A stretch of DNA of 16,970 bases from Chthoniobacteraceae bacterium (GTDB lineage Bacteria; Verrucomicrobiota; Verrucomicrobiia; Chthoniobacterales; Chthoniobacteraceae): the NCBI GenBank assembly GCA_031409655.1, contig JANNXQ010000138.1:1-16970 (forward strand), written 5' to 3'. The notes beneath the pieces are model-generated. The model was not told the DNA's origin and did no database searches. It saw only the letters and a program-made list of their open reading frames with translations. The translations under genes were made by a program, and so were the position numbers. This document shows positions 10,229 to 16,970 of the stretch, piece after piece. The stretch's first letter is position 1. Each line of letters begins with the position of its first letter.

Positions 10229-10341
10229 GAGAGGGAAACTTCGAGCTAGTAGTGGGCCGGGAGGTTGGCAATTCCCCGCTGGTTTGGGAAGTGTCCAGAT
10301 GGCACTCGCCGGAATTGCGCTAGTTCGGGGAAGCCGGCGTA

Positions 10342-14164: not shown

Positions 14165-16970
14165 TCACCCCAGGAGCGTCCGCGCGTGCGCGAGGGCGGC
14201 GTCGAGTTGTGAGGGGTCTTTGCCGCCGCCGCGGGCGTTATCCGGCTTGCCGCCGCCTTTGCCGCCGACGAGCGGGGCGATGGTCTGGATGATTTTGCCC
14301 GCCTGCACTTTGGCGGTGAAGTCAGCGCTCACGCTCGCGACGAGGGCGACCGCGCCATTCGCGCTGCCGCCGAGGACGGTGACGCCGGTGAAGCCGTGGG
14401 ACTTCAGCGCGTCGGCAACGGTTTGGAGCGTGTCGCCGTCGGCGGTGCCGAGATTGGCGATGATCGCGGGGGTGCCGTTGATCGTGGTGGCGGAAGCGAG
14501 CAGCTCTTTCGCGCGGCCGGCAGCTTCACGTTGCTGGGCGGACTTGAGCGCCTTCTCCAGTTCCTTCTGCTGCGCGAGCATCGCTTCGATGCGTTTCTCC
14601 AGTTCGGGCAGCGGCGTGCCGATCTTTGTCGCGAGGGCGTGGAGGCGTTGCGTGTCGCTGGTGGCGAGGTCGTAGGCATTCAGGCCGGCCTGGGCTTCAA
14701 TGCGGCGGACGCCAGCGGCGATGGCGGCTTCGCTGGCGATGCGGAAGAGGCCGATCTCACCCGTAGCGCGGGTGTGGGTGCCGGCGCACAGCTCTTTGGA
14801 AAATCCGCCGATATCGACCACGCGCACGGTCTCGCCGTATTTGTCGCCGAAGAACTGCATGATGTCCCCGCGGCCGCGCACGTCGGCGTAAGGCACTTCG
14901 ATCCACGAGACGGCGGCGTTTTCGACGATGCGCTCGTTCACCAGCCGCTCGATGTCGCGCACCTGCGCGGGCGTGAGTGCGGCGCTGTTGAAGTCGAAAG
15001 TGAGCTTGTCGGGGCCGACGAAGGAACCTTTCTGCGTGGCCTCTTTGCTCACGACTTCGTGCAGCGCCCAGTGGAGCAGGTGGGTGACGGTGTGGTGCCG
15101 CTGGATGGCGCCGCGGCGCGCGCGGTCGAACTCGATGGTGACGTGTTCGCCGACGGCGGGCGCATCGGCTTCGTCGAGGAAGTGCAGCCAGGCGTGGCCG
15201 CTCTTCTGCGTATTGGTGATGCGCCAGACGTTGCCGCCGTGGGTCATCTCACCGGTGTCGCCGACCTGCCCGCCCATCTCGGCGTAACACACGGAGTTGT
15301 TGGCGATGACGACGGTTTTGCCCTTCACCGAAAGCACTTCCTGCACATCGGCGCCGGTGTGGTCGTGGTCGTAGCCGAGGAAGTTCGTGGGCGTCTTCGT
15401 CTCGACTTCGGAAAGCTCGATGATGGTTTTCTTCTGCGCGGCGCGGGCGCGGGCGCGCTGCTCTTCCATGTGCTTTTCAAAACCCGCCGTGTCCACGGTG
15501 AGGCCGCGCTCACGGGCCATGAGTTCGGTGAGGTCGAGGGGGAAGCCCTGCTCATCATAAAGCCGGAACGCAAACGCCCCCGAGATCACTCGCGACTCCG
15601 CCTGCAAGCTCGACGGGCCTTGGGGAGCGCACGCTTCCAGCGTGCTGTGGGAGGCATCCTGCCGCACACCTTCGGGAGAAAGTGTGGAGCGCGACGATGG
15701 CTCCGGCTGGAAGCGTGCGCTCCCCACTTCACTCGCGACTGCAGAGCCGGTCGTGAGTGCCGTCCGATCGTTCCAAGTCCACACCCAAGGATACGCCTCA
15801 CCCGGCTGCATGAGGTTTTCATTCCAAGGATTCCCGCACACGTAGAGGAACTTTTCCTCCACATCCGTATCGCTGCGCATCAGCCGGTCGTGGCTTTCCT
15901 TTTCCCACACGGCCTCTCCAGTGCGTCCTTCGAGTTTGTTGATTTCGTTCGCGGTGAAAGATTTCACCGAATGGAGCAGTTCCGAGAGCGACCATAAGAC
16001 GGAGTTTCCTGCGGCGTCCTGCTGCTTCACCCACGGTTGCAGAAGGACATGGACGTGATCGGGCATGATGCAAACCGCAAAGAGGTCGTAGCGCTTTTGG
16101 TCGAAGTGAACGAAGCCGTCGCGGACGATGTCGCGGGCAGCGGGTGACATGACGCGGCGTTCACGCGTGCTGAAAGTGACGTGGTAGATCCCGTGTGGGA
16201 GTTCGTAGTGCGGGAGGTTGCGTTTGGTGAAGCGTGTGGAGCGCGACGATGGCTCCGGCTGGAAGCCGGACCCGGCACGCTGGAAGCGTACGCTCCCCTC
16301 TTCTCTCGTGACTTCGGACGCGCCGGTGAGTCTCGCGGCCTCGGCTTCGAAGAGGGCGATGCCTTTATCCAGCGTCTTGTTGAAGGACACCTCCTCGCGT
16401 TGCAGCACTTCCTCCACGTGCTTTTGCTTCGCGCGGATTCCGGGGAAGACGTCGCCCATCGTGCGCGCCAGCACGGGGACGAGCTGGTAGAAAAAAGGTT
16501 CCTTGAATCCGAGCGAACGGCCGTAGCGCACGGCGCGGCGCAGGATGCGGCGCAGGACGTAGTTGCGATCCGTATTGCCGGGCTGGATGCCGTCGGCGAT
16601 GGCGAAGCTGAGCGTGCGGATGTGATCGCCGATGACCCGGAAGGCGACGTCGATTTTCTCCTGCTCGCTCGTGGGGATGATCTGCCCGGCGGCGTTCGGC
16701 TGCGGGAGCGTGCTGCCGTATTGGTGGCCGCTCATTTTCTCCAGCTCGTCGAAGATCGGGCGGAAGATGTCGGTCTCGTAGTTGGAGATTTTCGCGTTGG
16801 CGAAGTCGGTGAATTCCTTCGTGCCTTGGATGATCGAGGTGAGGCGCTCGAAGCCCATGCCGGTATCGACGTGCTGCGCGGGGAGTGGCGTGAAGCTGCC
16901 GTCGGGGTTGGCGTTGAACTGGATGAAGACGTTGTTCCAGATCTCGATGCACTCGGCGGTGCCTTTGTTG
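14165..16970 (-). CDS. alaS: Alanine--tRNA ligase (5' end outside the window) with an in-frame RAYT insertion
   Basis: The frame is open to the window edge: EIWNNVFIQFN, motif 3 VDTGMGFERL, DHIRTLSFAIADG, YVLRRILRRAVRY, YAEMGGQVGDTG, editing motifs HTVTH and ELCAGTH, and C-terminal GGKGGGKP. Confidence 0.98.
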   Translation of the reverse strand, partial: NKGTAECIEIWNNVFIQFNANPDGSFTPLPAQHVDTGMGFERLTSIIQGTKEFTDFANAKISNYETDIFRPIFDELEKMSGHQYGSTLPQPNAAGQIIPTSEQEKIDVAFRVIGDHIRTLSFAIADGIQPGNTDRNYVLRRILRRAVRYGRSLGFKEPFFYQLVPVLARTMGDVFPGIRAKQKHVEEVLQREEVSFNKTLDKGIALFEAEAARLTGASEVTREEGSVRFQRAGSGFQPEPSSRSTRFTKRNLPHYELPHGIYHVTFSTRERRVMSPAARDIVRDGFVHFDQKRYDLFAVCIMPDHVHVLLQPWVKQQDAAGNSVLWSLSELLHSVKSFTANEINKLEGRTGEAVWEKESHDRLMRSDTDVEEKFLYVCGNPWNENLMQPGEAYPWVWTWNDRTALTTGSAVASEVGSARFQPEPSSRSTLSPEGVRQDASHSTLEACAPQGPSSLQAESRVISGAFAFRLYDEQGFPLDLTELMARERGLTVDTAGFEKHMEEQRARARAAQKKTIIELSEVETKTPTNFLGYDHDHTGADVQEVLSVKGKTVVIANNSVCYAEMGGQVGDTGEMTHGGNVWRITNTQKSGHAWLHFLDEADAPAVGEHVTIEFDRARRGAIQRHHTVTHLLHWALHEVVSKEATQKGSFVGPDKLTFDFNSAALTPAQVRDIERLVNERIVENAAVSWIEVPYADVRGRGDIMQFFGDKYGETVRVVDIGGFSKELCAGTHTRATGEIGLFRIASEAAIAAGVRRIEAQAGLNAYDLATSDTQRLHALATKIGTPLPELEKRIEAMLAQQKELEKALKSAQQREAAGRAKELLASATTINGTPAIIANLGTADGDTLQTVADALKSHGFTGVTVLGGSANGAVALVASVSADFTAKVQAGKIIQTIAPLVGGKGGGKPDNARGGGKDPSQLDAALAHARTLLG
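15621..15726. repeat. REP doublet 3' of the RAYT domain (translated)
   Basis: Perfect 21-bp inverted repeat TGGGGAGCGCACGCTTCCAGC at 15621-15641 and 15706-15726; hairpin GCACGC-TTCCA-GCGTGC. Confidence 0.9.
15773..16234 (-). CDS. REP-associated tyrosine transposase (RAYT, HUH/Y1, IS200-like fold) domain fused inside AlaRS
   Basis: RNLPHY, YHVTFST, MPDHVHVLL (HUH at 16049-16057), KSFTA, WEKESHDRLMR, YVCGNP (Tyr at 15842-15844) and YPW. Confidence 0.92.
16234..16298 (-). repeat. REP unit 5' of the RAYT domain (translated)
   Basis: GGGGAGCGTACGCTTCCAGCGTGC followed by hairpin TCCGGC-TTCCA-GCCGGA. Bases 16234-16266 are a perfect 33-bp direct repeat of 15682-15714. Confidence 0.9.

Follow-up and report, generated by a model that had tools for sequence, protein, structure and literature searches.

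We describe an insert in the gene for alanyl-tRNA synthetase (AlaRS, alaS) of a Chthoniobacteraceae bacterium, in a stretch of 16,970 nucleotides (nt) that is hereafter called the window (contig JANNXQ010000138.1 of the GenBank assembly GCA_031409655.1). The insert lies in frame within alaS and encodes a REP-associated tyrosine transposase (RAYT) between hairpins of the repetitive extragenic palindrome (REP) kind. We consider it rather probable that this insert is a selfish REPtron, i.e., a RAYT gene between inverted REP hairpins, which is translated through without splicing and is part of a Verrucomicrobiota clade residing in reading frames. RAYTs are HUH nucleases that bind hairpins of single-stranded DNA (ssDNA), and they are usually encoded by free-standing genes with REPs at both sides, while AlaRS is an essential enzyme. 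The window is the entire contig C138 of the source genome, G000, a metagenome-assembled genome (MAG) of 306 contigs with 94.9% completeness and 5.26% contamination. In what follows, G, L and P numbers denote genomes, loci and proteins, and X1, X2 and X4 are public sequencing runs.

A RAYT cassette within the alaS reading frame

The minus-strand frame 14165..16969 encodes 934 amino acids (aa), ends with a stop codon at 14165 and is open at its 5' end, at the contig edge. In this open reading frame (ORF), Pfam finds tRNA-synt_2c split around the insert into profile positions 193-383 and 377-551 (break at about 380), together with tRNA_SAD and DHHA1. The 5' part of alaS forms the end of contig C69, which shares 141 identical bases with the end of C138 (window 16830-16970 = C69:39995-40135), and the joined gene is a single frame of 1146 aa from the first ATG, with a normal AlaRS N-terminus and with the insert as residues 429-671. 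The identical contig ends indicate that the assembler halted at a graph branch within a conserved part of alaS. Contigs of many other organisms stack at this overlap, where the depth is 600-2400, compared to about 13 over the insert.

The host part has the tRNA-synt_2c core, the editing domain with both the HxxxH and CxxxH motifs, and the C-Ala domain (DHHA1) of an AlaRS, and AlaRS columns are conserved among the 93 insert-bearing proteins compared. A PF01411 search of the 94.9% complete assembly for a second alaS returned no more than the two parts of a single gene, on C69 and C138; the alaS with the insert is the only AlaRS gene found in this soil-type bacterium. Proteins of this AlaRS-RAYT kind are labelled “alanine--tRNA ligase-related protein” by NCBI, yet in G000 such a protein is the only AlaRS. 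Logan contigs from four public runs of one study, possibly of the source sample, tile the region with 0 mismatches, and both junctions of the insert are bridged in X1 and X2 (Table 1). These contigs stop only inside a 33-nt internal repeat, since k=31 graphs must break there.

By alignment to the E. coli AlaRS (PDB 3HXU), the insert falls between G386 and L389. There are no stop codons within the insert, and no in-frame ATG, GTG or TTG occurs from 16327 down to the ATG at 16150, which comes after the YHVTF strand; because the insert has no start of its own before the first core strand, the full RAYT domain can only be produced within AlaRS. An earlier note on this DNA, made from the letters alone, had described one frame leading from AlaRS through an insert with HUH and YxxxNP motifs and back into AlaRS with intact editing motifs, with neither a stop nor a start before the RNLPH/YHVTF motifs, and all of this is borne out. 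It had also envisaged an insert that a profile scan would place within tRNA-synt_2c, genuine junctions and a single alaS copy, and here, too, the results agree with it.

The motifs in question are CIMPDHVHVLL (HUH) and YVCGNPW (tyrosine in a Y-x-x-x-N-P helix). Pfam Y1_Tnp, which has a cut-off of 23 bits, scores 21.4 bits within the whole ORF and 25.8 bits with the isolated insert, and the NCBIfam family REP_Tyr_transpos (NF047646) matches over positions 4-145 of 146, with E of 2e-20 and 73.1 bits. AlphaFold (AF2) gives residues 45-190 of the insert predicted local distance difference test (pLDDT) values of 93-98, and the linkers (1-42 and 200-246) values below 62; in the full-length model of P0002, the closest relative, the RAYT has 83-94 and the linkers 26-40, and the N-terminal stretch 21-111 is poorly predicted. 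The best Foldseek match to the core is 4ER8_A, in which the E. coli TnpA_REP is in complex with a REP hairpin (E 4.5e-7, probability 1.00, template modelling score normalised to the target 0.63), followed by the TnpA proteins of ISDra2 and IS608, which are IS200/IS605 transposases; a profile search against PDB sequences likewise gives 4er8, at 1.8e-7.

Both HUH histidines, the tyrosine and the asparagine after it are invariant in 93 of 93 AlaRS-borne copies, and a set of 12 copies across AlaRS, ThrRS, RecG and PriA shows no exception either. In a cruder pattern count over 127 domains, HUH was found in 120 and Y..xNP in 107; most domains that fail the crude pattern have NA for NP with the tyrosine kept, and one second copy has PDHVN. 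Pairwise comparison of the core to eight AlaRS-borne relatives yielded ratios of nonsynonymous to synonymous substitution rates (dN/dS) of 0.13-0.21 in six, the other two pairs being saturated in dS and giving no value; dN/dS of flanking alaS is 0.13-0.30, save one 46-codon segment at 0.018.

What the earlier note had not mentioned are the flanking REP hairpins with their inverted repeats, and the wide distribution of the cassette. On the coding strand, the order is a GGGGAGC tag, two hairpins with TCC loops, the RAYT core, an 81-nt partial copy and an inverted REP; this is the layout of a REPtron, and the same plan is found in relatives. The G+C content of the RAYT core is about 10 points below that of alaS. 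The 81-nt copy pairs with the right REP module in a 21-bp perfect stem, and DNA folding of this region gives -46.7 and -51.6 kcal/mol (z of -5.75 and -7.04), and none of 200 shuffled sequences folds as well. The cassette of P0002 is the same minus these 81 nt; therefore, the duplication is specific to the lineage of the window. This in-frame duplication adjoins the right REP on its upstream side, and it could be the footprint of an aberrant RAYT strand transfer, or of slippage.

We searched the DNA around the cores (150 nt upstream, 200 nt downstream) for perfect stems with loops of 3-8 nt. Stems of at least 9 bp are present in 46 of 75 flanks on the upstream side and in 39 of 68 on the downstream side, compared to 2 of 73 in host DNA 450-600 nt upstream and 0 of 75 in shuffled flanks. 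The loops across relatives are mainly TCC, TCT, TCG or TTC, and the stems vary by lineage with both arms changed (GCGACGGCG/CGCCGTCGC, GTTTCCGGCG/CGCCGGAAAC, TCCGGCT/AGCCGGA). Such compensatory changes fit a hairpin that is recognized as DNA or RNA, whereas a peptide linker would not need them.

Relatives in alaS and in other host genes

An AlaRS profile search of 41 genomes of the same order, G000 included, gave an unbroken match in 23, a match broken at the insert position in 15, fragments only in two and none in one; 20 of the genes were read. Three states of the loop can be distinguished: (i) empty forms (G004, G005), with 32-34 residues between the flanking motifs; (ii) loops with a RAYT (G000, G017 and G019, with 277, 228 and 256 residues, respectively); (iii) loops with unrelated inserts of 58-165 residues, found in 12 other genes that were read. 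In relatives without a RAYT, the loop length is accordingly 32-165 aa, and, since many kinds of insert fill the loop, it is tolerant of inserts, as the earlier note had supposed. The nearest AlaRS proteins to that of G000, both without a RAYT, are those of G002, of the same genus (82.9% identity), and G022, from a different genus within the family (82.3%).

The unrelated in-frame inserts are seen in the AlaRS loops of G002, G003, G006, G007, G022 and G028 (L016-L027). Some seem low in G+C and helical by eye, and G002 and G022 share one type; they may constitute another class of in-frame insert. A second site for a RAYT in AlaRS is at about position 263 of the tRNA-synt_2c profile, in the YGSTLP loop (L041, L066, L090, L097, P0005-P0009, P0003, P0004), and some AlaRS (1379-1408 aa) and MetH (1648-1692 aa) proteins hold two nested RAYTs each. 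In the AlaRS-RAYT gene at L073:2338-3597, the frame stops at ...YDEQGFPWILPN, 47 residues past the end of the RAYT, perhaps because alaS is frameshifted or broken there, or because of a sequencing error.

A search with the insert among longer proteins found 259 at E<=1e-10, and, among the 120 listed, almost every one is an AlaRS with a length of about 1100-1200 aa, the remainder being MetH, RecG and threonyl-tRNA synthetase (ThrRS). There are more than 100 AlaRS-RAYT proteins, from independent assemblies of Chthoniobacterales, Terrimicrobiaceae and other Verrucomicrobiota. In species-representative genomes, at least 516 of 602 candidate stretches encode relatives, and hosts were assigned for the best 80 loci by reading the surrounding open frame, followed by a Pfam scan. 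The RAYT is nested in frame in 77 of these best 80 loci, the host being AlaRS in 31, RecG in 27, ThrRS in 13, MetH in three, a PFL-like protein in two and an MmeI-like protein in one; three are short frames without a host family. PriA also hosts a RAYT, in one relative. Across the 41 related genomes (G000 included), a high-scoring nested copy is present in 12, some of which have two or three.

The clade also has free-standing members with lengths of 188-266 aa, whose frames begin before the left REP and run across it. A representative-cluster search gave 62 clusters at E<=1e-30, of mixed lengths; because length alone cannot tell fragments from free-standing genes, eight proteins were read, all of which start with M. 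One unhosted copy, L102:2200-2910, lies in an intergenic REP cluster, downstream of tandem REP units, and its frame has 220 aa and no Met before the core.

Within the same genus, the cassette is in alaS of G000, in recG of G001 and G002, and in thrS of G003; in G000 itself, the RecG site is empty and the ThrRS site has an unrelated 88-residue insert (C218, about 14860-15128). We built a tree from 89 nested cores, a few loci being in it twice and two outgroups and three unhosted copies having been dropped. The host-gene label changes 15 times on this tree, compared to a minimum of 6 and a mean of 42.8 for shuffled labels, so that descent has been mostly within one host gene, with several switches. 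Clades of mixed hosts have high support values (MetH/PriA/AlaRS 0.98, AlaRS/PFL 0.98, ThrRS/MmeI 0.91). For 93 AlaRS-RAYT proteins, identity to the window in the host part is uncorrelated with that in the RAYT core (Spearman -0.07, p 0.49): P0043 reaches 87.5% for the host part against 65.6% for the core, several proteins have about 60% in the host part yet 70% in the core, and P0002 alone is close in both (84.9% and 87.4%). For the same pairs, synonymous differences are commoner in the RAYT core than in flanking alaS, if near saturation. From these comparisons, cassette and alaS appear to have had separate histories.

We considered whether alaS flanks had been co-converted along with the cassette, as the segments adjacent to the insert are nearer to G004, G005 and G017 than to the nearest AlaRS (G002, G022). 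This was dropped: the loops concerned hold other inserts, no recent tract was found, and the 46 downstream codons common with L037 have 97.8% protein identity but a proportion of synonymous differences (pS) of 0.56.

Explanations for the nested cassette

If the insert is a translated-through REPtron, as we consider rather probable, the cassette, having no expression signals of its own, would be transcribed and translated along with alaS, and the product would be AlaRS(1-428), linker, RAYT, linker and AlaRS(672-1146). The REP DNA would be read as disordered linkers rich in Gly, Ser, Ala, Arg and Pro, and, owing to these linkers, the RAYT would fold as a separate bead on an insert-tolerant surface loop while AlaRS kept working. 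By homology with TnpA_REP and the IS200/IS605 transposases, the RAYT would presumably bind and cut its own REP hairpins when these are single-stranded. On an evolutionary scale, there would be rare jumps to other genes, and exchange or loss among alaS alleles. The cassette would persist because imprecise deletion would destroy an essential gene, only precise deletion sparing alaS.

A bolder version is that such cassettes form a distinct selfish class that has lost its own expression signals and is confined to insert-tolerant loops of essential or housekeeping genes, where it is translated and not spliced out. A role like that of an intein would then have been built from an HUH transposase, with REP hairpins as linkers, and the cassette would repeatedly target the same sites, in genes such as alaS, recG, thrS and metH, either through ssDNA transposition guided by hairpins or through an exchange of alleles; the RAYT enzyme would therefore act while tethered to the host protein. 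We put this version forward tentatively, at somewhat less than an even chance.

Four known systems invite comparison. The cassette resembles REPtrons, such as E. coli TnpA_REP (4ER8) and those of group 3, in its Y1/HUH core and in the inverted REP modules around the gene. Group 3 REPs, known from REPtrons of Stenotrophomonas and Marinomonas, are described in passages of PMC8266576 as short perfect palindromes behind a 4-nt tag, and, as there, the palindromes here have 3-nt loops and follow a 4-nt tag. Unlike REPtrons, the cassette lacks its own start, stop and promoter, is in frame in host genes and would have its REPs translated; its tag is GGAG (within GGGGAGC), with no GTAG tetranucleotide beside the palindrome, whereas that of REPtrons is GTAG; its relatives occur in 1-3 copies per genome in different host genes; and the cassette's own REP variant is not dispersed in G000. 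Inteins with homing endonucleases are likewise selfish in-frame inserts with a nuclease at fixed sites of essential genes, with patchy occurrence and a history decoupled from the host. However, the cassette has no Hint or splicing domain (Pfam, E<=0.01) and appears to be retained in the mature protein, and it has hairpins of DNA at its ends and an ssDNA HUH transposase as its nuclease. Rickettsia palindromic elements (RPEs), which passages of PMC3733652 describe as lying in frame in ORFs that probably still code for functional proteins, are similar, by description, in being palindromic repeats translated with the host ORF, but they are short and have no enzyme, whereas the cassette has its own transposase and recurrent host genes. 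Finally, the insertion sequences (IS) of the IS200/IS605 group (IS608, ISDra2) have a related Y1 fold and a gene bordered by hairpins, and similar ssDNA chemistry is expected; their ends are subterminal hairpins of like orientation and not inverted REP modules, and, in contrast to them, the cassette has no tnpB, is nested in frame and is the one copy of its clade in G000, not one of multiple identical copies.

It should be noted that fused proteins of this kind are already on record, as public annotation (JGI) gives them a double name. A family-wide survey of RAYTs dropped “unexpectedly long proteins” as fusions or annotation errors, according to a section of PMC6006769, and the discarded proteins may be listed in its supplements. 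In the literature covered, supplements excepted, we found no description of RAYTs nested in other genes; what appears to be novel is the nature of the fused proteins as a class, which is seemingly undescribed. A whole Verrucomicrobiota RAYT clade is in frame in essential genes, with catalytic residues intact, hairpins conserved and signs of host switching. If the cassette is translated and active, it would represent a third route, beside inteins and RPE-type repeats, by which selfish DNA hides in coding sequence; its REP DNA would be doubly constrained, as hairpin and as peptide linker; and the nested copies would point to natural sites in AlaRS, ThrRS, RecG and MetH that permit the insertion of domains, and to suitable linkers.

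Several observations weigh against a selfish, translated REPtron. The association with the host gene is far from random, descent being mostly inside one host gene. The values of pS, 0.61-0.77 in the RAYT core versus 0.31-0.71 in flanking alaS for the same pairs, are near saturation, so that the contrast in dS between core and flanks is rough. The cassette is single-copy in G000, and its own REP variant is confined to the locus: exact and short-word searches of G000 for the flanking repeats found none beyond it. The score of NF047646 is below the curated cut-off of 80 bits, no excised or empty allele was seen in contigs of the public runs, and in RNA runs 0.06-0.11 of words matched. Strong purifying selection and invariant catalytic residues suit a domesticated role equally well.

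Domestication is, indeed, the alternative that survives best. The RAYT would serve the host within AlaRS, RecG, ThrRS and others, e.g., by tethering or regulation via ssDNA or RNA hairpins, and would now be immobile. Besides the constraint on the core (dN/dS of 0.13-0.21, catalytic residues invariant in 93 of 93), the occurrence of over 100 AlaRS-RAYT proteins in independent assemblies, the conserved host association on the tree and the one copy of the clade in G000 all speak for it. It is also in line with the general view of RAYTs as domesticated (parts of PMC5581495 and PMC8266576), the latter describing RAYT genes, in the passages concerned, as mostly single-copy, free-standing and without evidence of mobility. 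Conversely, the enzymes that hold the cassette have no common trait (AlaRS, ThrRS, RecG, PriA, MetH, PFL-like, MmeI-like), and it is found in intergenic REP clusters as well; the REP hairpins are kept as DNA by compensatory changes, which a protein-domain role does not require; close relatives live with empty or otherwise filled sites; and the histories of cassette and host are decoupled. Because domestication predicts the same conservation, it deserves to be kept in view, but it is a poorer fit to the host range, the DNA-level hairpins and the turnover, and we regard it as unlikely. The earlier note had offered a parasite sheltering in a tolerant loop and a domesticated fusion as its two options; the former is favoured here, and the latter is retained as its rival.

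It is very improbable that mature AlaRS is free of the insert, whether through a novel type of splicing, at the protein or RNA level, or through excision from the DNA of most cells. The in-frame place in a conserved essential gene, which is intein-like, and the 21-bp hairpin inside the coding region would suit such removal, but Pfam gives four families in the ORF at E<=0.01, none of them an intein or Hint family, and Rfam over 15300-16600 gives no match other than one chance match (E 0.78). The same-phase open frame in 77 of the best 80 loci would be superfluous if the RNA were spliced, and the depth over the insert in X1 contigs (13) resembles that of the unique flanks (12.5-24), with no trustworthy joint that skips the insert. 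Candidate joints at 15645>16255 (X1) and 15646>16261 (X4) have sides of only 23-24 nt, inside repeats, and others derive from conserved alaS parts at 90% likeness; neither kind was trusted.

That the arrangement is a chimera of the assembly, or that this alaS is a defunct copy brought in by contamination of the bin, is hardly credible: the MAG is in 306 contigs with 5.26% contamination, alaS is spread over two of them and the 33-nt repeat breaks k=31 graphs, but the 141-base overlap is identical and yields one 1146-aa frame, both junctions are bridged in two runs, P0002 has the same arrangement with an 87% identical core, the nearest AlaRS is from the same genus (G002, 82.9%), flank dN/dS is 0.13-0.30 and no other alaS was found.

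Coordinates and other features of the genome

Table 1. Features of the insert and its surroundings (positions refer to the window unless a contig is named)
Feature	Position	Strand	Remarks
alaS, C-terminal 934 codons	14165..16969	-	tRNA-synt_2c, tRNA_SAD, DHHA1; N-terminal 212 codons on contig C69
In-frame insert, about 243-246 codons	15590..16327	-	absent from empty-site AlaRS of G004 and G005
Left REP (GGGGAGC tag, hairpin 1, spacer, hairpin 2)	16254..16298	-	translated as GSVRFQRAGSGFQPE; two-hairpin plan also in relatives
Left REP hairpin 1	16275-16291	-	7-bp stem with one G-T pair, TCC loop
Left REP hairpin 2	16254-16270	-	7-bp perfect stem, TCC loop
RAYT (Y1/HUH) core, RNLPH to WVWTW strand	15758..16222	-	profile matches, fold, invariant His/His/Tyr
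HUH codons	16049-16057	-	within RAYT core
Catalytic Tyr codon	15842-15844	-	within RAYT core
Partial copy of left junction and left REP	15674..15754	-	81 nt/27 codons, 21-nt internal deletion; missing from P0002
Right REP (inverted left REP)	15621..15664	-	43 nt, 81% complementary to 16256-16298; translated as RQDASHSTLEACAPQ
REPIN-like long hairpin	15621..15726		21-bp perfect stem, 15621-15641 with 15706-15726; 64-nt spacer
33-nt exact direct repeat, right copy	15682..15714		in G000 only at the locus
33-nt exact direct repeat, left copy	16234..16266		k=31 Logan contigs end within
X1 bridging contigs	15433-15711 and 16237-16432		0 mismatches
X2 bridging contigs	15540-15648 and 16237-16432		0 mismatches
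Dispersed two-hairpin REPs, examples	C194:11993-12045; C60:10133-10183, 10245-10289; C195:67970-68016, 68078-68127		

A REP profile search of G000 gave 30 hits at E<1, of which 13 have E<0.01, the copies at the locus counted in, and these belong to diverged families. Two-hairpin REPs headed by GGGGAGC occur elsewhere in G000 and are diverged from those of the cassette. One dispersed two-hairpin family, GGGGAGCATACGCGTCYCGCGTGT..GTTTCGGCGTCCCGCCGAAAC, is often found as inverted pairs about 100-150 nt apart, in a REPIN-like arrangement. A regular expression for the left tag missed in many loci, and no target-site consensus was obtained.

A further REP family, tagged with GTAG (GTAGCGCAGGCTTCCAGCCTG...), is dispersed in G000 and flanks a second nested RAYT on contig C102 (L116, C102:32776-36897). 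This RAYT belongs to another subfamily (39% identity, Y1_Tnp 31.6 bits) and is in frame inside an ORF of 1374 aa, the C-terminal part of which matches UDPGP. The neighbours of alaS are ordinary chromosomal genes, which encode a MoxR-type AAA ATPase, a DUF58 protein, an RDD protein, a polysaccharide deacetylase and an ADP-ribosylglycohydrolase.

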